From Candidatus Dojkabacteria bacterium (GTDB lineage Bacteria; Patescibacteriota; Dojkabacteria; SC72; JAHDCA01), in NCBI GenBank assembly GCA_030583845.1, contig CP129478.1:279175-343174 (forward strand): a stretch of DNA of 64,000 nucleotides. Direction: 5' to 3'. Made by a program: the position numbers and the translations under genes. Positions 17 through 63,941 of this stretch are shown piece after piece (position 1 is the stretch's first letter; the number at the start of each line of letters is the position of its first letter). The notes beneath the pieces are model-generated. The model was given only the letters and a program-made list of their open reading frames with translations, did not search any database and had not been told where the DNA came from.

Positions 17-250
17 GGGTTCTCAGATACTCTCCTCCGTCCGACCACTAACCTTTGGTTAGTGGTCGGACGGAGGGACAGGGATATCTACGTGTGCCAC
101 TTCGTGGCAACTTCGCTGTCCGTCATGCTTGCCGCTCACGTTGCTCGCGGAGCATGTCCGCTCGAACCCCTGCTTTGCAGTGGGTTCTCAGATACTCTCC
201 TCCGTCCGACCACTAACCTTTGGTTAGTGGTCGGACGGAGGGACAGGGAT
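17..250. repeat. 69-bp perfect direct repeat (17-85 and 182-250). The second copy contains the last 15 nt of tRNA-Ser plus the downstream hairpin CTCCTCCGTCCGACCACTAACC/GGTTAGTGGTCGGACGGAGG.
   Basis: Seen directly: identical 69-mer GGGTTCTCAGATACTCTCCTCCGTCCGACCACTAACCTTTGGTTAGTGGTCGGACGGAGGGACAGGGAT at both positions. Copy B ends in the tRNA 3' acceptor/T-stem. Confidence 0.8.
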
Positions 251-322
251 TCGAACCCTGGGTACGGTTGCCCGCACAACGGTTTTCAAGACCGTCCCTT
301 TCGACCGCTCAGGCATCCCTCC
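236..322 (-). tRNA. tRNA-Ser (anticodon TGA), long variable arm, no encoded CCA
   Basis: Reverse complement reads GGAGGGATGCCTGAGCGGTCGAAAGGGACGGTCTTGAAAACCGTTGTGCGGGCAACCGTACCCAGGGTTCGAATCCCTGTCCCTCCG. It has an acceptor stem, a GGTTCGAATCC T-arm, anticodon loop CTTGAAA and an extra arm. The six-frame ORF 2..334 across it is spurious. Confidence 0.8.
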
Positions 323-371
323 AATCTGACGTGAGAATTATATCATAGCTACACCGATTTAGCTCTCGCGG

Positions 372-3721: not shown

Positions 3722-3760
3722 GCTATTAGAAATAAATATTAGTTGAGTCAATTATATCAT

Positions 3761-3977
3761 GCCGCTAACCTATAAGCCGTCAAGAGAAAGGCGGATTTAG
3801 CTTGGCGGTACAGTCTTTGCAAATTTAATGAAAATCACGGTGAAATAGCTATTGAGGTGAGTATCGAGCTACTTTACGGATATTTAGCCATCTAACATAC
3901 ACAGGGCCGCGGGCTATACTTGCTCATTAATGATGCGTAGCGAGCCGTGAAATGCTTCGCATTATAGGTTAGCGGCC
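3761..3977. repeat. REP-like element: inverted arms GCCGCTAACCTATAA (3761-3776) and TTATAGGTTAGCGGC (3962-3977) flanking about 185 bp
   Basis: Seen directly. Arms share the CCGCTAAC(Y)TATAG core of an 8-copy family. It lies in the divergent cysS/ybaB intergenic region. Confidence 0.7.
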
Positions 3978-14257: not shown

Positions 14258-14337
14258 ATCTAGTTCTGTAAAACAGTTAATGAGAAATTAAGATTTCCTT
14301 ATATCAAATTACATGATCTATACGAAATAATCAAACT

Positions 14338-14437
14338 GTTGCGCTGACCTATAGATCCGCCCACGTCCGGTTAGGCAAACATTCGATGCAGCAAGTCTGA
14401 AACCACCAAGTAGTCGGCTTATAGGTCAGCGCAACAA
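14338..14437. repeat. REP-like element: arms TTGCGCTGACCTATAG and CTTATAGGTCAGCGCAA flanking about 65 bp
   Basis: Seen directly. It is a variant (GCTGACCTATAG) of the family core and lies between the two Cys-rich surface-protein genes. Confidence 0.6.
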
Positions 14438-18083: not shown

Positions 18084-18258
18084 TCACCCCGCTAACTTAT
18101 AGTGTGCGGCATTTCACAACACCTTAACCATGATTAGACTGCCAGTTTAACGAGAACCTCACAGATCAATATCCCAACCATGAACTCGAGATTTAACGGA
18201 GCTTTACAACCAGTATTGCATGAGCATCGAGGACCACACTATAAGTTAGCGGGGTGAC
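18084..18258. repeat. REP-like element: perfect 24-bp inverted arms GTCACCCCGCTAACTTATAGTGTG / CACACTATAAGTTAGCGGGGTGAC flanking 127 bp
   Basis: Seen directly. The right arm abuts the tsf stop codon. The element fills the tsf-frr gap where pyrH is usually found. Confidence 0.8.
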
Positions 18259-31597: not shown

Positions 31598-31721
31598 CTC
31601 CCGCTAACTTATAGTATGTACTCAACCCTTAGTACTGCACTGTTTTCTCAAGATTCATTAAATCCGGGCTGGGCAATTGGTCACAGTGGACAGTGATGCA
31701 CGAACTATAAGTTAGCGGGAG
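31598..31721. repeat. REP-like element: arms CTCCCGCTAACTTATAGT / ACTATAAGTTAGCGGGAG flanking 88 bp
   Basis: Seen directly. Lies between the mreB start and rpmB stop. Confidence 0.8.
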
Positions 31722-41060: not shown

Positions 41061-41155
41061 TCAGTTTGCTCTTTAATTTAAGAACCTAAGCCCCCCCGAC
41101 CACTTGACGGTAATGGTTACACCGTATTTGGTAGAGATTGGGTCAAGTGGTCGGG

Positions 41156-41229
41156 GGGCCCATAGTTTCAATCGGTTAAAACAGCGGTCTCCAAAACCGT
41201 AGTTCTCCGTTCGAGTCGGAGTGGGCCTG
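41156..41229 (+). tRNA. tRNA-Trp (anticodon CCA), discriminator G, no encoded CCA
   Basis: GGGCCCATAGTTTCAATCGGTTAAAACAGCGGTCTCCAAAACCGTAGTTCTCCGTTCGAGTCGGAGTGGGCCTG, preceded by a 17-bp-stem hairpin. Classic position upstream of secE-nusG. Confidence 0.8.
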
Positions 41230-42193: not shown

Positions 42194-42236
42194 ACCGCTA
42201 ACTTATAGTGCGCTTCGCACTATAAGTTAGCGGTAA
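42194..42236. repeat. REP-like tight hairpin ACCGCTAACTTATAGTGCG ctt CGCACTATAAGTTAGCGGT just after the nusG stop
   Basis: Seen directly. No U-tract follows. Confidence 0.8.
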
Positions 42237-44205: not shown

Positions 44206-44250
44206 TGTCCGCTAACTCATAGTGAGATACTCGCTATGAGTTAGCGGACA
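44206..44250. repeat. REP-like tight hairpin (GTCCGCTAACTCATAGTGAG / CTCGCTATGAGTTAGCGGAC) after rplJ
   Basis: Seen directly. One mismatch in the stem. Confidence 0.75.
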
Positions 44251-44699: not shown

Positions 44700-44750
44700 A
44701 TCACCCCGCTAACCTATAAGTCGATGCGACTTATAGGTTAGCGGGGTGAT
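44700..44750. repeat. REP-like tight hairpin ATCACCCCGCTAACCTATAAGTCG atgc GACTTATAGGTTAGCGGGGTGAT after rplL
   Basis: Seen directly. Confidence 0.8.
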
Positions 44751-44826: not shown

Positions 44827-45486
44827 ATGATGGATTTCACACAGTGGGTTACAGACATTGGAATGACAGAGCAGATGCTACTTATGCTGCTCTATATTCC
44901 TGTGATCGTCACTCTTATTAACTTCACCAGGTATGTGGTTGGATTTAAGACTTTGGGAATCTATGCCCCAATGGTTCTAGCATATGCCTATATCTTCACC
45001 GGGATACGTTTCGGTTTACTTATCACCGCTGCGGTAATCGCTGGAACTCTCATCACCTACTCTATCTTCAAGAAGGTGAGAATGCACTATATCTCCAGAA
45101 TCTCTGTCAACTATATATTGGTAACCTTTTTCATTATCTTCGTGATTGCTTTTAATGAAATTTCGCCATTCCCCATCACTACTGAGAACCATAACGTTGC
45201 TACAATTCCACCACTTGGTGTGATCTTGATCGTAACTCTTTCTGACTTCTTCATTAAACAGTATGTTAAGAAGGACCTGGGTAGCTCACTTAGAGCTGTG
45301 GCCGAGACTGTAGTCATCGGTATTGCTGGCTGGGCACTCCTAAGACTCCCATTTCTACAGGTATTTATCCTAGATAACCTATGGCTGCAGCCGATCCTCT
45401 TAGGGGTAAATATTGCACTTGGTAAATATACAGGGGTAAGATTTAAAGAGCTCTTCAGATTTCAACGGGTTATTAAAGACGAGTAA
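44827..45486 (+). CDS. Seven-TM integral membrane protein (no catalytic motif), first gene of the ATP-grasp locus
   Basis: 219 aa with about seven hydrophobic helices. Its position immediately upstream of a RimK-like ATP-grasp mirrors the 7TM partner of RLAN-type amidoligase systems (family assignment unverified). Confidence 0.5.
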   Translation: MMDFTQWVTDIGMTEQMLLMLLYIPVIVTLINFTRYVVGFKTLGIYAPMVLAYAYIFTGIRFGLLITAAVIAGTLITYSIFKKVRMHYISRISVNYILVTFFIIFVIAFNEISPFPITTENHNVATIPPLGVILIVTLSDFFIKQYVKKDLGSSLRAVAETVVIGIAGWALLRLPFLQVFILDNLWLQPILLGVNIALGKYTGVRFKELFRFQRVIKDE

Positions 45487-45536
45487 GCGTCTAAAGCATA
45501 TTTAACCTTTTCACTTAATCATTTCCATCTACAAGC

Positions 45537-46997
45537 ATGATAGCCACAGCCATTTTTGGGCAGAAAGAAAAAGAGGTGTTGGGGATCAACAGGCGCAACC
45601 AGAACTATATCCGTGCCTTCAATCCCCCATCAGCTCGTGGTAAGGCCGACAACAAGCTCACGACCAAGAAGATTCTCAATCAGGTTGGCATCAAGACACC
45701 TGAACTGTACAAAGTAATCCGCAGCAAGCAGCAGCTCAAATTCTTCGACTGGAACTCATTGCCCAAGAGCTACGTCATCAAGCCAAACCGCGGCTCTCAA
45801 GGAAGCGGCATCATAGTCTTCTACGGCCAGAAGAAGAATAGCCTCGAATGGATCCGACCGAGCGGCCAGACCATGGATCCACACGAGATCTCCCTGCACA
45901 TGGAGAAGATTCTGGACGGCCGTCTATCTATGGGTAACCGCAAAGATATTGTGATAATAGAGGATAGAATTCGAACCCATAGTGAATTGAAGCGCTACTC
46001 ATACAAGGGTGTTCCCGACATTCGCCTCATCGTCTTCAACAGAGTGCCTATCATGGCCATGGTACGCCTGCCCACCCGTCGCTCCGACGGTAAAGCCAAC
46101 CTACACGCTGGTGCGATCTGTGCTGGTATCGACATAGCATCAGGCGTCACTACAAATGCAATGCACCTTCGCAAGCAGCCGCTGATTGAGGACACATATG
46201 AAGACCTCGAATTTACCCTAGACCAGAATCCTCCCCTACCCCTGAGAGGTATCAAGATCCCATTTTGGGAAGAGATCCTACAGATAGCAGTAAAATGCCA
46301 AGAGGTTAGCGGCCTAGGCTATCTAGGCGTCGACATCGTAATCGACCAAGAGCATGGCCCAATGGTGCTTGAGCTGAACGCACGTCCCGGGCTAGGCATC
46401 CAGACAGCAAACAAGACAGGTCTACGGGCTCGATTAGAGCGAGTCGCTGGGCTGCAAATCAAGAGCAATAAGCATGGAATCCGCGTGGCTAAGAGCCTAT
46501 TCGGTGGTGAGGTCGAGGAAGAGATCGAGGTGATCAGCGGTAAGCGGGTAGTCAATCTTGTAGAGAAGGTAAATGTATACCACTCCGAGCATGCAGACAA
46601 GAAGGAGCTGGTGAGTGCAATGTTGGACACAGGAATTACTACATCTCGAATCGACGAGGGGCTCGCCTCTCGGCTTGGTTTCACAGACGCTCTGAAAAGC
46701 TTTTCCGAGCATAAACCACCCCGTGAGTTCGGTAGTTTCACAGAAGCCCAACAGTACATAGATGCCCATGAGGAAGAGATTACCTCACACCCACAGATTT
46801 TACGTCTCGCTAAGATATCAGAAGATGGCAAAATCAATGTAAAGCCTGTTATTAGCCTTGAAATCAAGGTCGCAGGTGAAAGACGCGCGATGGACTTTGT
46901 TGTAAGCACTCAAAGTGATATGCTCTATCCAGTGCTGATCGGTCGCGCAGAGCTGAAGAGCTACCTGATAGACGCCAGCAAGACCTTCACACGCTAA
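45537..46997 (+). CDS. RimK-like ATP-grasp amidoligase with N-terminal INRRN region and C-terminal retropepsin-like (PF05618-type) peptidase domain
   Basis: N-terminal GINRRNQNYI (the motif of alpha-L-glutamate-ligase-related proteins). Central ATP-grasp elements (…IIEDRI…RLIVFNRVPIMAMVRLP…DGKANLHAGA…LGVDIVID…VLELNARPG). C-terminal …MDFVVSTQSDMLYPVLIGRAELKSYLIDASKTF matches the LLGRraL…VDps signature of the ATP-dependent-zinc-protease/retropepsin-like family. Confidence 0.6.
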   Translation: MIATAIFGQKEKEVLGINRRNQNYIRAFNPPSARGKADNKLTTKKILNQVGIKTPELYKVIRSKQQLKFFDWNSLPKSYVIKPNRGSQGSGIIVFYGQKKNSLEWIRPSGQTMDPHEISLHMEKILDGRLSMGNRKDIVIIEDRIRTHSELKRYSYKGVPDIRLIVFNRVPIMAMVRLPTRRSDGKANLHAGAICAGIDIASGVTTNAMHLRKQPLIEDTYEDLEFTLDQNPPLPLRGIKIPFWEEILQIAVKCQEVSGLGYLGVDIVIDQEHGPMVLELNARPGLGIQTANKTGLRARLERVAGLQIKSNKHGIRVAKSLFGGEVEEEIEVISGKRVVNLVEKVNVYHSEHADKKELVSAMLDTGITTSRIDEGLASRLGFTDALKSFSEHKPPREFGSFTEAQQYIDAHEEEITSHPQILRLAKISEDGKINVKPVISLEIKVAGERRAMDFVVSTQSDMLYPVLIGRAELKSYLIDASKTFTR

Positions 46998-47016
46998 CCT
47001 AACTCTTCATTTGAAT

Positions 47017-48006
47017 ATGAGCCAGTACAATATGGATCCCAAATATCTAGAGCAAGGCGGCAATGTCCACCTCGCTTACTATCTAGAAGCAGCCGACCAG
47101 CTTGGCATCAAATATGATGTCATCATCCGCTCGCTCACAGCCCGCATGGAGAAAGATGGGAAGATCTGGTTTATGATGAACGCCTCGGTTCCTATTAACG
47201 GCGAGCCCAGCTCTACACTATCCCGCATCAAGAGCTATACATACAAAGTTTTCCAGCACGCTGGTATCCCAGTGGCTGAGCAGGCTGAGTTATTCAGTGA
47301 GCAAGATGCATTAGGATTCTTCAACCAGTATAAGAATATCGTCATAAAGCCTGTCCGCAATATCGGAGGCACCGGCATCACTATCCTGCCACAAAGCGAA
47401 GATGAGGTGCGTCAGGCATATGTCCTCGCCCGCGACAAGAATATGGCAAGCACAAAGGTCGAGGCTTTGGCCGAACGATTCGCTATCGGCTCTAATTATA
47501 GACTGTTAGTACTTGGTGATGAGGTAATTGGTGCCGTACATAGAAGGCCAGCCCATGTCACAGGTGATGGAGTCTCGACAGTTGCACAGCTGGTCGAAGC
47601 AAAAAATGCAGCACGCAAGGCAGAGCTGATGAAACCGATCAAGCTTGATGCCCAGAGCATGCTGAAGCTGAGGTCCAACGGATTTACCGAGGGCTATGTG
47701 CCTCAAGCGGGCGAAGAGGTCGAGCTGAGATTCAACTCGAATCTCTCAACTGGAGGCACGACTGAGGAGTGCATGTCGAGAATTCACCCTAGCTATCTGG
47801 ATCTAGCCATACGCGCTACTAAGGAGCTCGGCTTAAAACTAGGCGGCGTAGATCTGATTGCCGAGGATGTGACCACTCCTGGTGCTGCTGCAGTTATTAA
47901 CGAGATAAACACAAATCCAGGGCTAAGGGTGCATTATAAGGTGGATAAGGGCGAGGTTGTGCCAGTTGCTACGAAGATTCTCTCCTACATAGTGGCCAAT
48001 ATATAG
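47017..48006 (+). CDS. Cyanophycin-synthetase-like ATP-grasp domain protein (short, 329 aa)
   Basis: …IVIKPVRNIGGTGITIL…NYRLLVLGDEVIGAVHRRPAHVTGDGVSTVAQLVEAKN…STGGT…GVDLI… resembles the CphA central ATP-grasp block. Confidence 0.6.
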   Translation: MSQYNMDPKYLEQGGNVHLAYYLEAADQLGIKYDVIIRSLTARMEKDGKIWFMMNASVPINGEPSSTLSRIKSYTYKVFQHAGIPVAEQAELFSEQDALGFFNQYKNIVIKPVRNIGGTGITILPQSEDEVRQAYVLARDKNMASTKVEALAERFAIGSNYRLLVLGDEVIGAVHRRPAHVTGDGVSTVAQLVEAKNAARKAELMKPIKLDAQSMLKLRSNGFTEGYVPQAGEEVELRFNSNLSTGGTTEECMSRIHPSYLDLAIRATKELGLKLGGVDLIAEDVTTPGAAAVINEINTNPGLRVHYKVDKGEVVPVATKILSYIVANI

Positions 48007-48028: not shown

Positions 48029-48223
48029 TTAGCGTACCCAGAGCTGCCACACTACTACTGAGCTGAGGACTGCAATAACTGCAATTAGCATGAACACAAG
48101 GTATGTATTTGCCCTCATAAGCCTTCGTGATTTAGCGAGCTGGAGCTTCTGGTTTACAGTGCTACCACTCTTCTTTGCAGTTGTAATCTTCATCTCTTTT
48201 GCCATATCGCCAGTATACCACAA
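48029..48223 (-). CDS. Small hypothetical tail-anchored membrane protein (doubtful)
   Basis: 64-aa ORF with a C-terminal hydrophobic helix YLVFMLIAVIAVLSSVVVWQLW. It overlaps the glyQS promoter region. Confidence 0.2.
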   Translation of the reverse strand: MWYTGDMAKEMKITTAKKSGSTVNQKLQLAKSRRLMRANTYLVFMLIAVIAVLSSVVVWQLWVR

Positions 48224-48226
48224 GCA

Positions 48227-48557
48227 AAAGCGAAATTTGCATTGCCTGCCTGCTTAGAGCTATAATACCAGCAGAAAGAGATCTTTGAAGCAAACACAGA
48301 GAGTCGACCCAAGGCATGAATTGCCGGATTTGAGAGGTTGGCGAGCTTACAAATTGGCACTCTTTTCGCTTGAGAAAGCAGCGTGATAAAAGAATATCGA
48401 GAGATTATCGCAGCTTATATGGCGCGGTAATAATGCGGGTGGAACCGCGGTAGTACATTTTTGAAATATACCGTCCCGCTAACTTATAGTCCATAGCCTC
48501 GGCGACGGAGTATAAGTTAGCGGGACGGTTTTTATTTATATATAATCATTTAAGAAT
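48227..48557 (+). promoter_or_regulatory. glyQS T-box riboswitch leader: promoter TTGCAT-18-TATAAT (48227-48256), AGAGA and GGC specifier region, T-box sequence AATGCGGGTGGAACCGCGG (48432-48450), terminator hairpin (48470-48529) plus U-tract (48530-48540)
   Basis: Seen directly: 17/19 match to the AAUUAGGGUGGNACCGCGG consensus, with UGGA (N=A, matching the tRNA-Gly discriminator U). Antiterminator pairing GCGGG/CCCGC and CGGUA/UACCG around a UGGAACC bulge. The terminator is a REP-family hairpin followed by TTTTTATTTAT immediately before the glyQS start. Confidence 0.7.
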
Positions 48558-48575
48558 ATGGAAAAAGAGAAAAGC

Positions 48576-49973
48576 ATGACAATAGAGACGCTTGCGGCAT
48601 TTGCAAAAAGGCGCGGCTTCGTATTTCAATCATCAGAGATCTATGGTGGATTTGCCGCTGTATACGACTACGCACATTACGGTGCGCTTATGCGCGAGAA
48701 TATCAAGCAGGCGTGGGTCAAAGAGATGATCCGCCGAGATGATGTGAAGCTTCTCGATTCAGCAGTATTTATGCACCCAACCACCTGGAAGGCCAGCGGA
48801 CATGTTGATTCATTCGCCGATCCTGAGATCGATTGCAAAAGCTGTAAGAACCGATTTAAAGCCGACCACCTCTTGGAGCCACTTGGATATACCGATGTCG
48901 ACCGCATGGAGATTTCAGAAGCAAACAAGATCGTAGAGCAGGTCAAAGCAGAAGGGAAATTGAAGTGTCCAGTATGCGGAGGCAAAGATCTCACAGATAT
49001 TAAGCGATTTGACCTGCTGGTTAAATCAAACTTAGGCTCCCCTACTTCAGAGCTTTCAGAAGAGAATGTTGTCTACCTACGAGGTGAGACCTGCCAAGGT
49101 ATCTATCTCAACTATAAGAATTACCTGCAGAATATGCGGGTGAAGGTTCCGTTTGGTATAGCTCAGGTTGGTAAAGCTTTCCGAAACGAGGTGGTCGCAC
49201 GACAGTACACTTTCCGTATGCGCGAATTTGAACAGTGCGAGATGCAATATTTCGTTCACCCAACTGACGAGCAGCCGAAATATGACTATTGGAAAAAGGA
49301 GCGAATGAGGTGGTGGAAAGAGGAGTTGGGCGTGCCTGCAGAGATGCTTAGATTTAAAGATCACGAAAAGCTTGCCCACTACGCGAAAGCAGCATGTGAT
49401 GTAGAGTACGACTTCAATGTACTTGGGAAATTTGCCGAGGTTGAGGGTATCCATCAGCGAGGTGATTGGGATCTCTCACAGCATCAGAAATTCTCAGGCG
49501 AGAATCTCGAGTATTTCGACCAGGATAAGAACGAAAAGTATATCCCACACATAGTAGAGACTTCGGGTGGACTCGACCGAATGTTCCTTGCCGTACTCGA
49601 TAGCGGCTATACAGAAGAGACGCTTGAAGATGGTAGCGAAAGAGTTGTGTTGAAGGTGAAGCCATCATTGGCACCAATAAAGGTGGCAGTATTCCCACTT
49701 ATCAAGAAGCCCGAGCTCACAAAATTGGCTAAAGATATCTATCAATACTTGCTTTCACAGCACATGGTCGAATATGATGAAACAGGATCAATCGGTAAGC
49801 GATATAGAAGACAGGATGAGATCGGTACACCTTTCTGCATCACTGTCGACTTCGAATCACTCGAGGACAACATGGTGACATTGCGCAACAGAGATACGCT
49901 AGAGCAGGAAAGGATCAAGATCGACGATATGCCACAGATTATTAACTCAAGGTTGTATCCGGAGAAGGCTTAA
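48576..49973 (+). CDS. glyQS: Glycyl-tRNA synthetase (single-chain alpha2 type)
   Basis: Class II motifs (…FRNE…, …GGLDR…) and N-terminal …FVFQSSEIYGG…. An alternative ATG lies at 48558. Confidence 0.9.
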   Translation: MTIETLAAFAKRRGFVFQSSEIYGGFAAVYDYAHYGALMRENIKQAWVKEMIRRDDVKLLDSAVFMHPTTWKASGHVDSFADPEIDCKSCKNRFKADHLLEPLGYTDVDRMEISEANKIVEQVKAEGKLKCPVCGGKDLTDIKRFDLLVKSNLGSPTSELSEENVVYLRGETCQGIYLNYKNYLQNMRVKVPFGIAQVGKAFRNEVVARQYTFRMREFEQCEMQYFVHPTDEQPKYDYWKKERMRWWKEELGVPAEMLRFKDHEKLAHYAKAACDVEYDFNVLGKFAEVEGIHQRGDWDLSQHQKFSGENLEYFDQDKNEKYIPHIVETSGGLDRMFLAVLDSGYTEETLEDGSERVVLKVKPSLAPIKVAVFPLIKKPELTKLAKDIYQYLLSQHMVEYDETGSIGKRYRRQDEIGTPFCITVDFESLEDNMVTLRNRDTLEQERIKIDDMPQIINSRLYPEKA

Positions 49974-50011: not shown

Positions 50012-51694
50012 ATGGAAATCAAAGTATTACAGGGTGTGAACTTTGAAGCACCGCACACGCTTATTAAGATCAGCCTAGATGGTGATGCTGGTAAAGTAAC
50101 TCCCCTACTCGACCTAGTTAAATCTTTCCACCATGTCTTGTTAAAGGAGTATGTGGTGGACGGCTCGACGGTGATATTGAATTCGAAGCTAACGCACTTG
50201 TGGAAGAGTTCAGCAGAGCATCTGAACAAACTATCTTTAGGCGAACTCTCACAAGAAGAGGTTGAAGAATACGTTATAGGATATACTATCAAGAATCAGA
50301 TCTACTCGATGTCGACACTGTTTATGCTGGAAGGCGCGATCGAGTTAGGTGAAGAAGTCACCCAGTCTCTCTTTAACGGCCCTGTATTCGATGACCCTTC
50401 TTATGAGAAGCCTGGTGGTGCATGGAATCGTGTCTATACGATCGGAGCCGGCTCGGCCGCAATGCTTACAAAATCAACTGGCTCTACTGGTGACCCGATC
50501 ATGGCTTTGAATATCCAGCGAGACAAGTGGGTAACCAACACATATGCCGATCGATTGAAGCTCCCTGTAGCCAAATGGGACTTACTTCGATCCGAAGAAG
50601 AGGTTGAGCGACTTTTTGAGGAGTATGAGAAGCCCGTGGTTATAAAACCGACAGGATTGGTAGGTGGCAATGGGGTCACCACCAATATTAATACTCTCGA
50701 GCAAGCTAAAAAGGCATACAATTATGCCTACGACATCGTCCATGAGAAAAACCGATCGGCGTGGCAGCAGAAGATTATGATCCAGCAGCAGGTCGCAGGT
50801 GAAGATTATCGACTACTGGTCGTTGGTGGAATCTTGGAGATTGCTACCAAGCGCATCCCAGCCTTTGTGACTGGCGATGGGAAATCCACTCTGGAGCAGT
50901 TGATCGAAGAGACAAACAGAGATCCACGCCGAGACATGCGCAACCCCGCCCATATCTTGAAGCCGATAGCTTTCGATGAGAAACTGGACGAGTATCTTGC
51001 TGAGCAGAATCTATCGCTCGACCATATCCCAGGTGAGGGTGAGAAGATCTTCGTGCGCAAGGTTGCAAGCATGAGCCAGGGTGGGATCACAGAAGATTTC
51101 ACAGATAAAGTACACCCACAGATTAAGTATCTTGCAGAATCAATGGCCAGCTCGATCCACGCACATGTGGTTGGCATCGACGTGATCTGCAAAGATATCT
51201 CGAAGCCTTTGACCGCAGACAACGGTAGCTTTATCGAGATGAACACAATGCCCGAAGCATACCTCAACACCTTCCCGGTGATCGGCAAGCAGTATCCCGA
51301 GACAGGTCAGGTAATCATTAAGCGACTGCTGGAGAAGATGAAGCCAGTAACCCGTATCGTGGCTATAGGGTTGGGATTACCAGAGCTGTTTGAGAAGTTG
51401 GAGAACGAGGGTGTGATTGTCGATGATGCAATTGTAGGTACAGTGTCGGGTGGTAGCATCTATATCGACAGCGAGATTATGCATGAGGATGTAGAGACCT
51501 GGGAGGCAGTAGAGGCACTCAAATTGAATGCCCTACCCTCGGTGCTAGTGCTGCACTATAAAGATGCTGACGAAGTTGAGGAAGTGGGACTTGGGTTTGA
51601 TAAGGTAGACTATCTAATCGCCAATGATGAGGTAAGTGAGAAGCTGAGTGGCGAGGGATATAAGAGTAAGGTGTTGAATTTCATTAAAATCTAA
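50012..51694 (+). CDS. Cyanophycin-synthetase-like ATP-grasp protein lacking the Mur-ligase half (561 aa), with about 120-aa unknown C-terminal region
   Basis: …VVIKPTGLVGGNGVTTNI…DYRLLVVGGILEIATKRIPAFVTGDGKSTLEQLIEETNRDPRR…SMSQGGITEDFTDKVHPQ…HVVGIDVICKDISKPL…FIEMNTMPEAY closely follows the CphA ATP-grasp block (…HRVLVV…AVAERVPAHVIG.GKSTI.ELIE.VN.DPRRG…). No MurE-like domain follows. Confidence 0.65.
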   Translation: MEIKVLQGVNFEAPHTLIKISLDGDAGKVTPLLDLVKSFHHVLLKEYVVDGSTVILNSKLTHLWKSSAEHLNKLSLGELSQEEVEEYVIGYTIKNQIYSMSTLFMLEGAIELGEEVTQSLFNGPVFDDPSYEKPGGAWNRVYTIGAGSAAMLTKSTGSTGDPIMALNIQRDKWVTNTYADRLKLPVAKWDLLRSEEEVERLFEEYEKPVVIKPTGLVGGNGVTTNINTLEQAKKAYNYAYDIVHEKNRSAWQQKIMIQQQVAGEDYRLLVVGGILEIATKRIPAFVTGDGKSTLEQLIEETNRDPRRDMRNPAHILKPIAFDEKLDEYLAEQNLSLDHIPGEGEKIFVRKVASMSQGGITEDFTDKVHPQIKYLAESMASSIHAHVVGIDVICKDISKPLTADNGSFIEMNTMPEAYLNTFPVIGKQYPETGQVIIKRLLEKMKPVTRIVAIGLGLPELFEKLENEGVIVDDAIVGTVSGGSIYIDSEIMHEDVETWEAVEALKLNALPSVLVLHYKDADEVEEVGLGFDKVDYLIANDEVSEKLSGEGYKSKVLNFIKI

Positions 51695-51701
51695 GGATGT
51701 A

Positions 51702-52661
51702 ATGCAGATGCGATACCTATACATAGAAAAGCCCCAAAGAGTCAAAATGTCCGGTGAATACCCGAAGCGTGCTATACGCATAATGGAGGAGCTTGAGAAG
51801 GCCGGTCTTCCTTATGATTTCGCATACAACGATCAGATATCAATTTCATTAAATAAAAGCGAGCTCCAGATTAAAGTTAATGGAAAAGATGTTAGAGAGT
51901 ACACACATATTATCTTTGGTGGTCACCACCTCCATAGCCAACGAGATTACGAGATAAAGAGACTGATCGTCGACGTTGTCGATGAGCATAACCAGGATAG
52001 CGGTAACTCAGAGCCCATAAGAGTTCAGAACTCTCGATTCATTAAACGAATGACATTCTACTCAAAGCTGCACATGGCAAAGATCTGCGCAGACTATGGC
52101 CTACCGTTCCTCGCAACATATTACGACCGCTCGGGTAAGTATCAGCAGTCCAACCTACCCTTCCCCTACCCTCTGATTGCAAAACATGTCGATGGTCGCA
52201 ATGATCTGGTGATGATCGACGGTGAGAAGAAAGTTAAAAAGAATGTATACAAGCTTGATAATGAGAACGGTTGGAAGCAGGACAGGCTGGCCACCAAGAG
52301 CCCAGCGCTCTTCTTCATACAGGAATTCGCCGACTCAGGAGAAGATTTCCGATATTTTGTATCCAAGGGCGAAGTGATAGGAGGCTGGAAGCGTGTCGCG
52401 GGCGACAGCTTTATGACCGTGAACCGCAAAGAGGGTGCCAGATATTTCTATGCCAACGAGCCAGACAAGAAGATTCGAGATATCTGTAAAGCCGCCGCGG
52501 ATGGCTGGGGAGTCGACTTTATGGCATTGGACTTCATGTATAAGGATGGTGAGCCTCACATTTTGGAGTTCAGCATGAACCCTGGCTTCGATGCCTATGA
52601 GAAGAAGTGCGAAGATGGCGAGCCAACAAATATCGCCGAGGCGATCGTTAAATCTTTTTAA
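51702..52661 (+). CDS. RimK-like ATP-grasp ligase (alpha-L-glutamate ligase family)
   Basis: …FFIQEFADSGEDFRYFVSKGEVIGGWKRV…MALDFMYKDGEPHILEFSMNPGF… parallels RimK (…DIRCFVVGD.VVAAMKR…EVNSSPGL). Confidence 0.6.
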   Translation: MQMRYLYIEKPQRVKMSGEYPKRAIRIMEELEKAGLPYDFAYNDQISISLNKSELQIKVNGKDVREYTHIIFGGHHLHSQRDYEIKRLIVDVVDEHNQDSGNSEPIRVQNSRFIKRMTFYSKLHMAKICADYGLPFLATYYDRSGKYQQSNLPFPYPLIAKHVDGRNDLVMIDGEKKVKKNVYKLDNENGWKQDRLATKSPALFFIQEFADSGEDFRYFVSKGEVIGGWKRVAGDSFMTVNRKEGARYFYANEPDKKIRDICKAAADGWGVDFMALDFMYKDGEPHILEFSMNPGFDAYEKKCEDGEPTNIAEAIVKSF

Positions 52662-56041: not shown

Positions 56042-57025
56042 TTAGATCTTCATTGCATCCATCACTCGTCCTATAACATCATCTGCAACCTTATTTGCAC
56101 TTTTCTCACCCTCCTCTAATAGCTCAACTATATACTTGTCTCCAAGCTTATCTACCTCAGCCCTCTTCTCTCGTACAGGCTGAAGCATCTTCTCAATTGC
56201 TGCGTATAGTTTCTCCTTCACCTCTACATCGCCTACAGTTCCCTTAACATATCTTTCTTTCAGATCGTTAATTTCATCTTTATCTTCATTAAAGTAGTCA
56301 TGATAGATGAACACAGGATTACCCTCTACGCGACCAGGGTCGGTAGCACGGATTCGGTTAGGATCTGTATACATGCCCATTACTTTCTTACGCACATCTT
56401 CTGGCGAGTCACTAAAGAAGATTCCACCCGTCGATTTCCCTGCCTTCCCTTGTCCATCCAGTCCTACCAGTATCTCCCCTATCAAACCTGCAGGAACTTT
56501 CAAAGCCTTTCCATAAGTCTTATTAAATTTGTTCGCCAAGTCGCGTGTGATCTCAATATGCGCCTCCTGATCCTTACCAACTGGGACTACGTCGGAATCT
56601 ACAATCAATATATCGGATGCCATCAGAACTGGATATCCCAAAAGACCATATGTTAGGTCATGCCCACCCTGCAGCTTCTCCTTCAGTGCAGGCTGCCTCT
56701 CGAGCTCAACCATTGGAGTCAGCATAGAGAGAATTAGATGCAATCTAAATGTCTGAGCCAACCTAGACTGCCTGTAGAACGTAACTTTCTCCGGGTCCAT
56801 TCCGAGGCTGATCTGCGTCTTTATCAAATCGATCGCGTTTTGATGAATTATATCGGCCTGATTATAATGAGTAGTCAAGGTATGATAGTCTGCAGAGAAG
56901 ATAAAGGTATCGTACTCATCTTGCCTTGCGATTCTGTTTTTGAGCGTGCCAATATAAGCACCGATTACATATGAATTTCCAGATGCCCTATCCCCTGTCA
57001 GTAGCCTTTTCTTTTTTTCCATCAC
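56042..57025 (-). CDS. trpS: Tryptophanyl-tRNA synthetase
   Basis: Class I HIGH-region …SGNSYVIGAY… and KMSKS-variant …GQGKAGKSTGG…, size 327 aa. Confidence 0.9.
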   Translation of the reverse strand: MMEKKKRLLTGDRASGNSYVIGAYIGTLKNRIARQDEYDTFIFSADYHTLTTHYNQADIIHQNAIDLIKTQISLGMDPEKVTFYRQSRLAQTFRLHLILSMLTPMVELERQPALKEKLQGGHDLTYGLLGYPVLMASDILIVDSDVVPVGKDQEAHIEITRDLANKFNKTYGKALKVPAGLIGEILVGLDGQGKAGKSTGGIFFSDSPEDVRKKVMGMYTDPNRIRATDPGRVEGNPVFIYHDYFNEDKDEINDLKERYVKGTVGDVEVKEKLYAAIEKMLQPVREKRAEVDKLGDKYIVELLEEGEKSANKVADDVIGRVMDAMKI

Positions 57026-57413
57026 TTTTCTTCATTAAATTTAATCTATCTTACTTGGGGACCTCGTTTACAGCCTAAGCCATAAAACAAAAATCCCCGA
57101 ACAAGAATGAACCAAAATTCACTCTTGCCCGGGGACGTTACTCACGTGTTGCCACCCCTTCTTTGCGAGTACATCGCTGCACCCACCTTGTCGACTGACT
57201 TCCGGTGTAGAAACTAACTTCCACCACTTATCTCATCAGTCCGAATCTATTACGTGATTCGCTACGTCGCACATACTCAATCATGCCTTCGTGTGACAGA
57301 CCTTTCTGATTGCTGCTCCCTGGCCCATTCTCCAGATCACGGCATTTCATACCTTCGCAAAATCATTTACAAGGGTATGATTACATTATACTACAGCCTT
57401 ATTGATTTGTTAA
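57026..57413 (-). promoter_or_regulatory. trpS T-box riboswitch leader: promoter TTAACA-17-TATAAT (plus coordinates 57385-57413), candidate T-box GGGGUGGCAACACG with UGGC bulge (57146-57166), terminator hairpin (57096-57135) plus U-tract (57085-57095)
   Basis: Minus-strand RNA: …AAGAAGGGGUGGCAACACGUGAGUAACGUCCCCGGGCAAGAGUGAAUUUUGGUUCAUUCUUGUUCGGGGAUUUUUGUUUU…. Antiterminator architecture A1 GGGG/CCCC, 7-nt bulge UGGCAAC (UGGC complementary to the G-CCA end of the tRNA-Trp found in this window), A2 ACGU(GAGUA)ACGU. A strong terminator lies about 30 nt upstream of the start. Several UGG triplets are candidate specifiers. Confidence 0.55.
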
Positions 57414-60313: not shown

Positions 60314-62071
60314 CTACTCTGCGGTCAGCTCAGACTCTAGGTTCTTTTTTATCTCCTGCAATCGACCCAAAAGCTTATCAAGTGCAACCACCTCACTACT
60401 ATCTTCTCTGCGCTGCTTTACCTCTGCCCCGCCATTCTCTAGGCTCCTCTTACTGATCACTACACGAATTGGATTGCCTATCAGGTCTGCGTCGGCGAAT
60501 TTCACTCCAGGCGATGCATCCTCTCGGTCATCCCACAACACCTGAAGTCCTGCACCTATCAGCTCGTCGTATGCTGCCTCTGCTTTCTTCAAAATCTGCT
60601 CATCCTTATCTAGCGTGATCAGCTGCATATGATATGGCGCAACGCTTATAGGCCAAATTACCCCATTCTCGTCATTAAATAGCTCCGCAATTATGCCCAT
60701 CATTCTGCTAATACCGATGCCATAGCTCCCCATATATATAGGCTTGCTCTTTCCTGCCTCATCTACCACTTCATATTTGAATGCCGAGGTAAATTTAGTC
60801 TCGAGCGGGAAGATATTACCTGCCTCGGATGACTTGAACAGCTCATACACCTCACCGCTCTCAGGGTGGATATCACCCTCTTTGGCAAGCTTGATGTCGT
60901 AGAACTGCTCAGGCTTATCGATATCGCGCCCCCAGTTCACATTTATAGTGTGATAGTTAGTCTTATTTGTACCGCACTCGAAGTTTCTCATCGGCTCGAT
61001 CGAGTCATCAAGATACAGCTCCACACTATCGGGCAGATTTATAATCCCTGCGTACCCGATTTCTGCTCCTGTGACCTCTTTGACTGTGGCTTCATCAGCC
61101 AGCTCCAACTGCTTTGCACCGACGACCTTCTTCAGCTTTATCTCGTTCACGTCGTAGTCGCCACGAACAGCTGCGACGATTACTCGATCGTCAGCCTTAT
61201 ATATCAATGTCTTTACGCACTTCTGTGCTGGCACATCTAAGAATTTCACAAGCTCCTCCATCCCTGTGATCTCCTCACCATACACATCCTCAAGCTTTCG
61301 TTCTGACTCCTCTGCGTTGCCCTCAAATTCAGGCGCTTTGCTAGGCGCAACCTCTCTATTATATGTAACCCCAGTGCTCTCAACGTGGAAAAGCCAATCC
61401 TCACCTGTCTCGAGCCTCACCTGGAACTCATGCGAGAAGTTCTCAGTGAAGTCACCGCCTGATGCGAGCGCTAAATATGTATAATTACCGATACCAACCC
61501 TCTTCATCACATTCATATAATATTTCTTCGATTCTTCGTAATACTGCTCAAAGTCCTCCTTCGATGCATGGAAACTATACAGATCTTTCATCCTGAACTC
61601 TCTCATGCGGAGCAGTCCCGATTTGGCCCTCGGCTCATTTCTAAATTTGGTCTGGATCTGGTACAACGCTATGGGTAAGTTCTTATAGCTATTCCCGTAC
61701 TGTTTTACGATCGAGGTTGTCACATCCTCGTGGGTCGGGTTTAGGATATATTCGGAGCTATTCTTGGCCTTAGACACCTCATTTGCAGGAGATGTCTTCA
61801 TCAGTACGTCTACTGTATTGAGTCGGTTGGTAGTCTGCCAGGTCTCTTTCGGAGCGAGTGCGGGCATCTGCATCTCCTCACCTATCTTATCCATCTCGTC
61901 TCGTACAATTGTCTCGATATTTCTAATCACCCTTAACCCTAGTGGCAGGTATGCATACACGCCTGACATTACCTGGCTTACGAAGCCCCCTCTTACTAGG
62001 TATGTTGCATTCTTAGAGTCGTACTCTTTTGATCCTTTACTGGTTTTGAAAAGCGTATTTGAATATTTCAT
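60314..62071 (-). CDS. proS: Prolyl-tRNA synthetase
   Basis: Class II bacterial-type ProRS with insertion domain. N-terminal …YLVRGGFVSQVMSGVYAYLPLGLRV…. Confidence 0.9.
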   Translation of the reverse strand: MKYSNTLFKTSKGSKEYDSKNATYLVRGGFVSQVMSGVYAYLPLGLRVIRNIETIVRDEMDKIGEEMQMPALAPKETWQTTNRLNTVDVLMKTSPANEVSKAKNSSEYILNPTHEDVTTSIVKQYGNSYKNLPIALYQIQTKFRNEPRAKSGLLRMREFRMKDLYSFHASKEDFEQYYEESKKYYMNVMKRVGIGNYTYLALASGGDFTENFSHEFQVRLETGEDWLFHVESTGVTYNREVAPSKAPEFEGNAEESERKLEDVYGEEITGMEELVKFLDVPAQKCVKTLIYKADDRVIVAAVRGDYDVNEIKLKKVVGAKQLELADEATVKEVTGAEIGYAGIINLPDSVELYLDDSIEPMRNFECGTNKTNYHTINVNWGRDIDKPEQFYDIKLAKEGDIHPESGEVYELFKSSEAGNIFPLETKFTSAFKYEVVDEAGKSKPIYMGSYGIGISRMMGIIAELFNDENGVIWPISVAPYHMQLITLDKDEQILKKAEAAYDELIGAGLQVLWDDREDASPGVKFADADLIGNPIRVVISKRSLENGGAEVKQRREDSSEVVALDKLLGRLQEIKKNLESELTAE

Positions 62072-62297: not shown

Positions 62298-63941
62298 CTA
62301 CATCTGCTCTAGTGGCTTCATGCCGAGCAGCTTCATACCGTCTGCGAGCACCTGAGTTACCAGATCTACTGCGAGAAGCCTTACAGCCTTTTCGCTCTCA
62401 TTTGCGTTCTGTATGGACTCTCTTTCATAAAAGTTGTTGAATAGCTTGGCCAGATCATAGATATACTCTGCGACGATGCTTGGTGCATAATTATTTGCTG
62501 CCGATACAAACCTCTCCTGATACTCTAACGCCTTCATTAGCAATTGGTGGTCTAGCTCTGTCATCGAGTCACTAATATTGCCCATATCGACAGGTATAGT
62601 GCCCGGCTCATAGTTCTGACCTCTCAGAATGCTCTTGCCTCTTGCATATGCATACATTATATATGGGCCGCTCTTACCGGTGAATGAGACAGCCTTCTCA
62701 ATATCAAATCGCATATCCTTGAACGGGTCGGTCACCAAGAATGCAAACTTCAATGCATTCACAGCAACTACTTCAGCGATCTCCTCCTCACTCATGCTGG
62801 ACTCCATCTGCACATTGCGCTCCTGCACTGCCTTCACTGCGGCCTCGTGCATCTTATCCAGCAAACCATCGCCCGATAGAGCCTGGCCATCTCGCGAAGA
62901 CATCTTCTTTCCATCCTTGCCATACACATAACCGTAGGCATAATGGTAAAGATTATCGATCGGGATAAGCTCAAGCATGTCGAGCAGAGAGAACAGCCTC
63001 TGGAAATGCATGATCTGCTCATTGCCCACAACCCACATCGCTCTCCACGGTTTGAATTTCTCGATCTTCAGCGTAGTCAGGTGAATATCTTGGGTGTGAT
63101 ATAGAGATGTTCCATCCGACTTAAGCAGCACAACATCTGGAACACCATACTCATCCTCTATACGACCGACAATAGCACCGTCCTCTAGTTTCTCAATCTT
63201 GGTGCCGTCGAGGTAGTTCATAATAGTATCTCGACCGCTTGTATAGATCTCGCTTTCATACCACCTATGTCCGAAATCTTCCCACACTCTGCCTGCTGTA
63301 GCTAACTGACCTTCAAGTACCCAGTCGATCATCTTTCTCCAGGTCGCTCTTATTTCTGGATCTCCCTGCTCCCACTTGGCCAGCATGCCCTTGATCTGCT
63401 CTTTTACATCGTTGTCATCTTTATATTTCTGAGATCCTAACACATAGTATTTACCGACAAACTGGTCAGGCTTCAGCCCTTCACTATCGGGCGTGCCTCC
63501 TTGGGCTAGATTATCGAGTGCCCAGATCGTCTTAACGATCGGCATGCCGCGGTCATTGATGATGCTGTCTTGCTCTCCCACAAACCCAACCTTATCAAAC
63601 ATCCTCAATAGTGAAGTGCCTAAGAACAGGTTGAGAAGGTGTCCTATATGAAGTGGCTTGTTTGGGTTGGGTGATGGAGATTCAACAAGTATCACACGCT
63701 CCTGGCCTGCTGTTGCTGTTGAGAATTTTGCAAAATTGAGCCCAGCTTTGGCTGCATTCTCTATAAGCCATGCGTTATTTACTTTCAGATTAATGAAATT
63801 GTTAGGAGCAACTGTAAGTTCTGATATCCAATCGAGGTTGGCATCGTTAATTATGCGTGCCAGCTCTTCGGCAATCTCTTTAGGGCTTTTCTTCAATTCG
63901 CCCGCTAGCCTCATAGCCGCAGTGCTTGAGAAATCTCCCAT
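62298..63941 (-). CDS. argS: Arginyl-tRNA synthetase (the reading frame stays open to the window edge, so the true start may lie beyond 64000)
   Basis: HIGH motif PNPNKPLHIGHL, KMSK-variant KMSSRDG, DALR anticodon-binding C-terminus. Confidence 0.9.
   Translation of the reverse strand: MGDFSSTAAMRLAGELKKSPKEIAEELARIINDANLDWISELTVAPNNFINLKVNNAWLIENAAKAGLNFAKFSTATAGQERVILVESPSPNPNKPLHIGHLLNLFLGTSLLRMFDKVGFVGEQDSIINDRGMPIVKTIWALDNLAQGGTPDSEGLKPDQFVGKYYVLGSQKYKDDNDVKEQIKGMLAKWEQGDPEIRATWRKMIDWVLEGQLATAGRVWEDFGHRWYESEIYTSGRDTIMNYLDGTKIEKLEDGAIVGRIEDEYGVPDVVLLKSDGTSLYHTQDIHLTTLKIEKFKPWRAMWVVGNEQIMHFQRLFSLLDMLELIPIDNLYHYAYGYVYGKDGKKMSSRDGQALSGDGLLDKMHEAAVKAVQERNVQMESSMSEEEIAEVVAVNALKFAFLVTDPFKDMRFDIEKAVSFTGKSGPYIMYAYARGKSILRGQNYEPGTIPVDMGNISDSMTELDHQLLMKALEYQERFVSAANNYAPSIVAEYIYDLAKLFNNFYERESIQNANESEKAVRLLAVDLVTQVLADGMKLLGMKPLEQM

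Follow-up and report, generated by a model that had tools for sequence, protein, structure and literature searches.

A predicted glycine T-box leader in a Dojkabacteria genome, with a terminator that appears to be built largely on a dispersed palindromic repeat

The DNA analysed here is a 64,000-nucleotide stretch of a Candidatus Dojkabacteria genome (assembly GCA_030583845.1, contig CP129478.1, positions 279,175 to 343,174), hereafter called the window, and all coordinates are given in its numbering. The plus-strand nucleotides 48273-48540 very probably form the leader of a glyS operon and constitute a class I, that is transcription-attenuating, glycine T-box in which most of the terminator is derived from a dispersed palindromic repeat. 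The leader is of the glyQS type, which here means that it is composed of stem I, a linker, stem III and the antiterminator, and that neither stem II nor a pseudoknot is found. It lies in an interval (48227-48557) bounded by a small open reading frame (ORF) on the minus strand and by a plus-strand ORF of 471 aa at 48558-49973. The product of the latter matches NCBIfam NF003211 with 590 bits (cut-off 312), and the Pfam domains tRNA-synt_2b and HGTP_anticodon are also found, identifying the regulated gene as glyS, encoding a dimeric (alpha2-type) glycine--tRNA ligase. An identical 7.4-kb stretch of the glyS locus is present in the assembly of SRR24881069.

The T-box sequence and the antiterminator occupy 48432-48479. 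The sequence AAUGCGGGUGGAACCGCGG is found at 48432-48450, and GGGUGGAACCGCG, at 48437-49, contains a bulge of the 5'-UGGNACC-3' type. Helix A1 is 5 bp long (GCGGG 48435-39 / CCCGC 48475-79), helix A2 is 6 bp long (GCGGUA 48447-52 / UACCGU 48469-74), and the 7-nt bulge UGGAACC (48440-46) is found between them. The antiterminator folds as described with an energy of -13.5 kcal/mol, and at the base of A2 there is a G.U pair (G48447.U48474). Both this pair and the UGGAACC bulge are used as criteria for T-box antiterminators (PMC11404447; PMC4574755; PMC7583486). The UGGA of the bulge fits the UCCA end published for tRNA-Gly (PMC4574755; PMC11404447), while a G.U or G-C pair at the base of A2 acts as a steric sensor (PMC7583486; PMC11404447). 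The original prediction, which was made from the sequence without database searches, had described a glyQS leader with a near-consensus T-box sequence and a canonical antiterminator, and these elements are present as it had proposed.

Stem I, as delimited by folding and comparison, spans 48274-48366. Its basal helix (GAAAGAG 48274-80 / CUCUUUU 48360-66) is followed by a second helix with one bulged A (48284-91 / 48345-53), by the AG-bulge T-loop AGAGA at 48298-302 and by a distal helix of 7 bp (GUCGACC 48303-09 / GGUUGGC 48336-42). The distal loop of 26 nt (48310-35) contains a mini-hairpin at 48313-25 and a T-loop, UGAGA, at 48331-35. The two motifs AGAGA and UGAGA flank the distal helix and are predicted to form a double T-loop apex; the combination AGNNA...UGNNA is the signature of a double T-loop that docks the tRNA elbow (PMC3664808). 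The putative specifier is the GGC at 48356-58, which is followed by the conserved 3' purine A48359 and adjoins the 3' strand of the basal helix on its 5' side. An AGAGA element with a nearby GGC had already been pointed out in the stem I region. The AGAGA is indeed the AG-bulge T-loop, but the GGC closest to it (48313-15) belongs to the non-conserved mini-hairpin; the conserved glycine codon is the one at 48356-58.

Between stem I and the T-box sequence the leader folds into a small lineage-specific hairpin (GCUU-GAGA-AAGC, 48368-48379). The nearest relative, L009, has GGCUC-AACU-GAGCC at this place, while the more distant leaders described below lack such a hairpin. The segment 48399-48431 holds the purine string GAGAG (48399-403) and stem III (AUUAUCGC 48404-11 / GCGGUAAU 48424-31). 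The whole leader folds with -96.9 kcal/mol, which corresponds to z = -6.1 relative to shuffled sequences.

In a default Rfam scan the T-box family RF00230 was not reported for the leader at its gathering score of 93. When permissive filters were used, RF00230 matched 48276-48481 with 30.1 bits, and the E-value was 7.8e-5 for a search of 651 nt and 0.0076 for the whole window. In the alignment to the model, stem III, the T-box sequence and the antiterminator are placed without non-canonical pairs. Among 14 listed matches of the leader RF00230 ranks second, after CopA, which obtains 36.4 bits over the terminator hairpin on the opposite strand. The CopA match and the matches to microRNA families on the same hairpin were rejected as artefacts of a long perfect stem. 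The original prediction had proposed an Rfam scan as a check and had named the lack of a significant hit as an outcome that would speak against it; at the curated threshold this is the outcome obtained, while the permissive match points the other way. As the Rfam match was indecisive, the leaders of homologues of the glycyl-tRNA synthetase (GlyRS) were compared.

The related leaders were obtained by exact-protein look-up of the DNA upstream of GlyRS homologues. Nine leaders were available for comparison: that of the window and those of L009/L010, L012, L013, L014, L018, L020, L021, and L022, the GlyRS identities ranging from 62 to 83%. In the eight further loci GGGUGGAACCGC is found 108-191 nt 5' of the start codon, and the 14-nt T-box core is identical in all nine leaders and always located upstream of GlyRS. 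The nine share the same order of elements: a -10-like hexamer, the basal helix, AGNNA, the distal helix, UGNNA, a glycine codon followed by a purine, the purine string, stem III, the T-box core, an A2 helix that starts with G.U, and A1. The basal helix is weak or absent in L013 and L021, while the AGNNA...UGNNA pair, the G.U pair at the base of A2 and the -10-like hexamer at the equivalent position are found in 9/9. The specifier is GGC followed by A in eight leaders and GGA followed by G in L018, at the same structural position, and this matches the range published for glycyl T-boxes (PMC11404447). In the minimum free energy (MFE) folds of the window, L009, L012, L014, and L022 the specifier belongs to the 3' side of an internal loop and immediately precedes the basal helix. 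The purine string reads RAGAG in eight leaders and UAAAG in L021.

The sequences of the basal helix, the distal helix, stem III and A2 differ among the leaders while the pairing is kept, and stem III has a different sequence in each of them. Even between the window and L009 only 54% of stem I and 42% of the linker together with stem III are identical. When the nine leaders were aligned in full with MAFFT, the 3' half came out well but stem I was scrambled; the comparison of pairing was therefore made from individual folds of each leader and a hand-annotated table of elements that was checked by script, and for L021 the order of elements was read from the sequence and the folds. Rfam itself aligns the AGNNA and UGNNA motifs of L014 and L009 to the AG bulge and the distal loop of its model, and the RF00230 scores of these two leaders are 42.9 and 36.1 bits, respectively. 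A kink-turn (K-turn) motif is present in L018 (GCGAUGA...GA), and most of the leaders have a terminator followed by a U-run. In L013 a strong antiterminator (-18.5 kcal/mol; 2806-2968 of that locus) is found without an adjacent competing terminator, and the sole hairpin with a U-run is located about 90 nt further downstream; the expression platform of this leader may work differently.

Scans of genomes and metagenomes with the GlyRS protein returned mostly distant loci (45-49% identity) without leaders. No leader was found at the GlyRS loci of other taxa in this identity range, nor at L019 (65% identity) or L023 (62%), where glyS starts 8 nt after recO. The element thus seems to be confined to a sub-clade. 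The comparison with leaders of related genomes that the original prediction had suggested accordingly yielded eight further leaders with the same ordered elements and a glycine specifier, and it is on this comparative evidence, rather than on Rfam, that the leader is assigned as a divergent glycine T-box.

The antiterminator is followed by an intrinsic terminator (48470-48539) with a 24-bp hairpin at 48470-48529, composed of 19, 3, and 2 bp, and the U-run UUUUAUUUAU at 48530-39. The hairpin has a calculated energy of -44.4 kcal/mol. The terminator and the antiterminator overlap by 10 nt, as the 3' strands of A2 and A1 (48470-79) also make up the first ten nucleotides of the hairpin. The upper 48 of the 60 nucleotides of the hairpin (48476-48523) are a copy of the dispersed palindromic repeat, with the core arm CCGCTAACYTATA; the CCGCTAACTTATAG arms are found at 48476-89 and 48510-23, with one mismatch between them, and the apex is specific to this copy. 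The repeat is seated on a 6-bp base, ACCGUC/GACGGU, which corresponds to the GCCGUCCC/GGGGCGG that makes up the entire terminator base in L014, L018, L020, and L022. The outermost CCGC of the repeat doubles as part of helix A1. A terminator followed by a U-run, and a terminator stem identical to a hairpin scattered across the window, had both been part of the original prediction, and both were found.

L009 shares these arms in its T-box terminator, whose energy is -41.1 kcal/mol. Each 19-nt arm segment is identical at 18 of 19 positions between the two leaders, while the apices are unrelated. The terminators found at the equivalent place in L012, L014, L018, L020, L021, and L022 are not made from the repeat and have energies of -15.8 to -23.8 kcal/mol (-20.3 kcal/mol in L012). 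Among the leaders that have a terminator, the two repeat-bearing ones also have the strongest antiterminators, with -13.5 kcal/mol for the window and -16.8 kcal/mol for L009 versus -8.8 to -11.6 kcal/mol for the others. In these two A1 is 5 bp long compared to 3 bp elsewhere, and A2 lacks an A.C mismatch. This suggests that the antiterminator has been rebalanced against the repeat terminator, in what would be one evolutionary event only. To say, as was originally proposed, that a dispersed repeat has been co-opted as the T-box terminator is reasonable, because the terminators of the more distant relatives are not made from the repeat, because only the T-box copy has a U-run and flanks complementary to the T-box, and because this copy is kept in the sister species.

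Based on the established T-box model the leader would work as follows. The anticodon of uncharged tRNA-Gly(GCC) would pair with the specifier GGC at 48356-58, the tRNA elbow would stack on the AGAGA/UGAGA double T-loop at the apex of stem I, and the 3' UCCA of the tRNA would pair with UGGA (48440-43) in the 7-nt bulge. This would stabilize the antiterminator formed by A1 and A2, and the polymerase would read through into glyS and probably into the two ATP-grasp genes that follow it. If the tRNA-Gly is charged, the antiterminator would not be stabilized and its 3' strand (48470-79) could be captured by 48520-29; the 24-bp terminator would then be completed and would end transcription within the U-run at 48530-39. 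Folding of the repeat hairpin is possible both with and without the antiterminator, and the hairpin may therefore serve as an upper stem that is already in place when the decisive lower 10 bp close.

The repeat family was delimited by searching the 64-kb window for CCGCTAACTTATAG with at most two mismatches. Fourteen matches were found, forming seven inverted pairs, while 0.28 matches were expected and none of 100 shuffled sequences reached 14. When three mismatches were allowed the matches dropped to chance level. An eighth inverted pair has variant arms (GCGCTGACCTATA) and is found at 14337/14436. All eight pairs are intergenic, and only the copy in the T-box has a U-run. Three short copies of 39 nt each follow the stop codons of plus-strand genes: one at 42195-42233, 6 nt past the stop codon, and two at 44209-44247 and 44706-44744, 13 and 20 nt past the stop codon, respectively. 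The other four are long forms that span 100-214 nt and have complementary arms of 15-30 nt. These are found at 3762-3975, just upstream of cysS (unique interior of 186 nt), at 14337-14436 (the variant arms; interior of 66 nt), at 18089-18252 (arms of 30 nt; interior of 128 nt) and at 31601-31718 (arms of 18 nt; interior of 88 nt). The four interiors resemble neither one another nor any other part of the window, lack a long ORF and fold no better than shuffled sequences (z about 0). Between the repeat arm and the cysS ORF at the 3762-3975 copy there is a TATAAT, and all repeat arms carry TATAGT or TATAAG.

Each copy is extended by mutually complementary flanks of its own. Conservation is seen in the 14-nt core, whereas the inner 4 bp and the outer flanks vary but remain complementary. 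A miniature inverted-repeat transposable element (MITE) was rejected, as the interiors are not shared and the flanks are complementary rather than directly duplicated. Integron attC-like arms were set aside by reading; the CTAAC/GTTAG core resembles R boxes, yet each copy stands alone, the copies are spread among housekeeping genes and they can be as small as 39 nt. The idea of a 'CTAAC...GTTAG' hairpin theme shared by the whole clade, which came from the terminator of L014 (CCCUAACCUA), was also rejected since no enrichment was seen outside the window and L009. Exact arms are confined to this genome and L009/L010, with none in the 20 other loci. The locus L009 has full copies after the gene encoding ATPgrasp_ST and upstream of the T-box promoter (1286-1331 and 2627-2677 of L009), where the window has only degenerate left-arm remnants (46991-47003 and 48243-48259). 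One of these remnants overlaps the Arg and stop codons (CGC TAA) of the ATPgrasp_ST gene. Thus, copies of the repeat decay or turn over, while the T-box copy has been kept.

The repeat had originally been assigned to the repetitive extragenic palindromic (REP) family. It is a short extragenic palindrome present in multiple copies. REP elements are further characterized by an associated RAYT (IS200/IS605-like Y1) transposase and by a conserved tetranucleotide such as GTAG at their end; the arms seen here begin with CCGC and not GTAG, and 'REP-like' is fair as a description only; anything beyond 'short extragenic palindrome' would be an analogy. Extragenic palindromes that double as transcript-end hairpins or terminators include the E. 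coli REP sequences and bacterial interspersed mosaic elements (BIMEs), pairs of DNA uptake sequences (DUS) and Correia elements in Neisseria, and pairs of uptake signal sequences (USS) in Haemophilus. Like these, the window repeat is a short, imperfect, multi-copy intergenic palindrome, often found past stop codons and able to form a stable RNA hairpin. The sequences are unrelated, and the copies of the window repeat were counted within 64 kb of this genome. Other perfect palindromes were also seen in the window. Two identical 43-nt copies (CCTCCGTCCGACCACTAACC TTT GGTTAGTGGTCGGACGGAGG) are found at 34-76 and 199-241, the latter overlapping the end of a tRNA-Ser gene (233-323, minus strand), and the right arm of a 17-nt inverted pair at 41092-41158 overlaps the first bases of a tRNA-Trp gene.

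The permissive Rfam scan also revealed a second sub-threshold T-box on the minus strand, where RF00230 matches 57128-57349 with 28.9 bits (gathering score 93). This leader (57086-57390) is located upstream of trpS (56042-57025), which was identified by TIGR00233 with 261 bits. A K-turn and a stem II are present, the bulge reads UGGC, and stem I is ultrashort (CUGG-AGAAUGGG-CCAG), its apical loop containing GAA-UGG-G. The terminator of this leader, 20 bp followed by a U-run, has an energy of -28.8 kcal/mol and is unrelated to the repeat. The tRNA-Trp gene at 41156-41229 has a G as discriminator, complementary to the C of UGGC. For the trpS T-box the logic of specifier and bulge, UGG together with UGGC and the discriminator G, can thus be verified within this genome. 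According to the Zhang 2020 review (PMC7583486), a long, platform-bearing stem I is generally needed in transcriptional T-boxes. The combination of an ultrashort stem I and a transcription terminator at trpS runs counter to the generalization tying such stems to translational, mostly actinobacterial T-boxes.

The window encodes five aminoacyl-tRNA synthetases: cysS (2255-3751), glyS, trpS, proS (60314-62071), and argS (62298-63941). T-box leaders were found at glyS and trpS only. No T-box core was seen upstream of cysS, proS, or argS, the region upstream of argS being covered for 59 nt only. Two stretches, the long repeat form in front of cysS and a 226-nt gap in front of proS, were considered as T-boxes and rejected, since both lack a UGGNACC core and an Rfam match.

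Several observations weigh against the assignment of the glyS leader as a working glycine T-box with a co-opted terminator. Its RF00230 score is far under the curated threshold (30 versus 93 bits), the alignment skips most of stem I, and L012 and L013 gave no Rfam match at E <= 0.01. Stem I has no K-turn (GA motif) around 48270-80 / 48360-70 and no clear AGUA/GAA S-turn, and its distal loop is 26 nt long where about 11 is usual. When folded without constraints, the MFE structure pairs AGAGA with 48282-87 rather than leaving the motif free. A tRNA-Gly gene was sought in the window and in all the fetched loci, and none was found with which the predicted anticodon and discriminator could be compared. 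The evidence from pairing is a reading of a hand-curated table of nine sequences. A terminator as stable as this one might hold the switch largely in the 'off' state, and a selective benefit of the repeat is an interpretation in which retention in two species counts as a single phylogenetic event. The low Rfam score can be explained by the missing K-turn, the unrecognisable S-turn, the long distal loop with its mini-hairpin and the short lower part of stem I. A gathering score is a detection threshold and not a mechanistic feature. The K-turn is also missing in streptococcal glyQS leaders and in 29% of 200 surveyed leaders (PMC11404447), and its absence does therefore not exclude a leader from the T-boxes.

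A likeness to the T-box core that has arisen by chance in a GC-rich hairpin region would account for a score so far under the gathering threshold, and also for the spurious CopA and microRNA matches that the hairpin draws. This explanation is effectively refuted by the 9/9 leaders that share an identical 14-nt core, a glycine specifier, the T-loop pair and helices whose pairing is preserved, and a second T-box with a matching tRNA-Trp identity in the same window makes it still harder to sustain; it is almost certainly wrong. It is also improbable that the leader is the relic of a decayed T-box, in which insertion of the repeat has made the terminator a constitutive block or a mere mRNA-end hairpin and glyS is transcribed from another promoter. 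Such a promoter could be TTGAAA-18-TATAGT at 48461-48490, which with a score of 10/12 is the best promoter-like match between 41 and 54 kb and has its -10 in the repeat arm. A terminator 20-28 kcal/mol more stable than those of the relatives and a stem I without K-turn would fit a relic. However, L009 does not share the -35 of this internal site, and the number of promoter-like sites in the region, 17 against 18.7 expected, shows no enrichment. The elements that contact the tRNA are intact, being identical or compensated between the window and L009 in spite of the low identity of stem I (54%) and of the linker together with stem III (42%).

The two other alternatives accept the T-box and concern the repeat. 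The arms could be a genome-wide signal, such as a protein-binding or DNA-uptake-type motif, a U-less terminator or an mRNA-end hairpin, and not a mobile REP-like element, in which case the T-box simply uses the standard hairpin of this genome. The positions of the three short copies 6-20 nt past the stop codons of plus-strand genes can be read in this way, and so can the conservation of the 14-nt core next to inner 4 bp and outer flanks that vary yet stay complementary. The arms are furthermore far better conserved between species than their surroundings, and the long forms bracket unrelated unique DNA, unlike a MITE. A standard hairpin is, on the other hand, difficult to reconcile with a U-run at the T-box copy only, with a trpS terminator that is unrelated to the repeat, with the absence of the family from 20 other loci of the clade and with the gain and loss of copies between close relatives, and this alternative is considered unlikely. 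The repeat could also be a neutral passenger of a working T-box, a mobile or self-propagating palindrome that landed in the apex of an existing terminator and was tolerated, a longer terminator stem being harmless, without any adaptive co-option. This is a possibility to be taken seriously, though we lean away from it. The family turns over between the window and L009, related T-boxes manage with terminators of 8-16 bp, and the 6-bp base that flanks the repeat corresponds to the ancestral stem; the wholly different apices in the window and L009 are also what would be expected from exchange with, or re-insertion from, other copies. Yet without the repeat only a loopless 6-bp stem would be left, which makes the present terminator physically dependent on the repeat. 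Both species have kept the T-box copy, while the counterparts of two other L009 copies are degraded in the window, and the antiterminator is stronger in exactly the two leaders that bear the repeat, which fits a rebalancing, although as a single event. The glyS leader is best read as a glycine T-box with a terminator recruited from the repeat.

The leader has a putative promoter of its own, as judged from the sequence, with TTGCAT at 48237-42, a spacer of 18 nt and TATAAT at 48261-66. The -35 hexamer agrees with the consensus at 3/6 positions only, and for this reason the site was not listed by the promoter scan. Downstream of glyS two genes encoding ATP-grasp ligases follow on the plus strand (50012-52661). 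The first (50012-51694) encodes a cyanophycin-synthetase-like protein of about 560 aa and the second (51708-52661) a RimK-like protein of about 317 aa. The gaps are 38 nt between glyS and the first ATP-grasp gene and 13 nt between this and the RimK-like gene, and no plus-strand terminator-like site was found in either. The order GlyRS, ATP-grasp, RimK-like is kept in seven related loci (L009, L011, L012, L014, L018, L020, and L022). The short gaps without a terminator and the conserved gene order make it likely that the ATP-grasp genes are under the control of the glyS T-box, and the T-box would thus probably control glyS plus both of them by co-transcription. The original prediction had the T-box give glyS a control independent of its neighbours. 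This holds for the upstream ATP-grasp genes, from which the leader is insulated, having a putative -10 of its own and being separated from them by a conserved minus-strand mini-gene, but not for the two downstream genes, which are probably co-regulated. GlyRS and two ATP-grasp ligases under a common glycine-starvation signal would be a hint at the role of these unannotated ligases.

The region upstream, 44827-48006, contains more ATP-grasp genes and a 7TM_transglut gene. On the minus strand at 48029-48118, divergent from the glyS promoter, a gene for a hydrophobic peptide of about 29 aa (MRANTYLVFMLIAVIAVLSSVVVWQLWVR) is found, and near-identical peptides are encoded at the equivalent place in L009 and L019.

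The closest known systems are the glyQS/glyQ T-boxes of Bacillus subtilis, Geobacillus kaustophilus and Oceanobacillus iheyensis (RF00230), which are transcriptional and have neither stem II nor the IIA/B pseudoknot. Like these, the window leader has a glycine specifier followed by a purine, a double T-loop apex, a single-stranded linker, a stem III with flanking purines, UGGAACC between A1 and A2, a G.U pair at the base of A2 and a competing terminator with a U-run, and it is located upstream of a glycyl-tRNA synthetase gene. It differs from them in having no K-turn, no evident S-turn, a 26-nt distal loop with a mini-hairpin, an extra hairpin after stem I and a terminator of 24 bp and -44 kcal/mol that is mostly repeat. 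Furthermore, it precedes an alpha2 enzyme followed by two ATP-grasp genes, its host belongs to the candidate phyla radiation (CPR)/Patescibacteria (Dojkabacteria), and it obtains only 30 bits against the Rfam model.

Streptococcal glyQS T-boxes (PMC11404447) resemble the window leader in that the GA/K-turn and partly also the GAA S-turn are unrecognisable, while the specifier with its purine, the AG bulge, the apical loop and the discriminator are kept. These are, however, leaders from Firmicutes that have been probed experimentally and have normal terminators. The glyS T-box of Staphylococcus aureus with its 'stem Sa' (PMC4574755; PMC9177973) also regulates an alpha2-type GlyRS, and in it too an insertion specific to the lineage, about 40 nt long and placed in the terminator/antiterminator region, supplies much of a terminator stem. 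Stem Sa is placed inside the antiterminator, on top of A2, and has a unique, genus-specific sequence, whereas the insertion in the window sits in the apex of the terminator, lies outside the antiterminator and is a copy of a multi-copy genomic repeat.

T-boxes have been described in Firmicutes and are found scattered in Actinobacteria, Chloroflexi, Deinococcus and a few delta-proteobacteria (PMC2494555). In the searchable literature no paper linking T-boxes to CPR/Patescibacteria was found, and the open-access literature contained no report of a repeat of this kind forming the expression platform of a riboswitch. Three aspects appear to be new: the host group, the fact that the curated model misses these leaders, and a terminator whose body is a dispersed repeat. 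The T-box mechanism itself is ordinary, and what is known about it is not changed by these findings. A broader proposal, which in our judgement has an even chance of being right, is that CPR bacteria of the Dojkabacteria type carry a lineage of divergent T-boxes missed by curated models. At least two of these would be found in the window: a glycine T-box with a terminator rebuilt from a repeat and a strengthened antiterminator, and a tryptophan T-box that combines an ultrashort stem I, with its specifier in the apical loop and no platform to bind the elbow, with a classical intrinsic terminator.

If this is true, the known range of T-boxes extends into Patescibacteria. With two T-boxes within 64 kb of a genome of about 1 Mb, RNA-based sensing of amino acids appears to have been retained in reduced, host-dependent bacteria, and as both are under the Rfam threshold, standard annotation would under-report T-boxes in these organisms. 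The repeat-built terminator would also be a natural case of an expression platform remodelled by repetitive DNA, and might serve to explore what degree of terminator stability is compatible with a kinetic switch.

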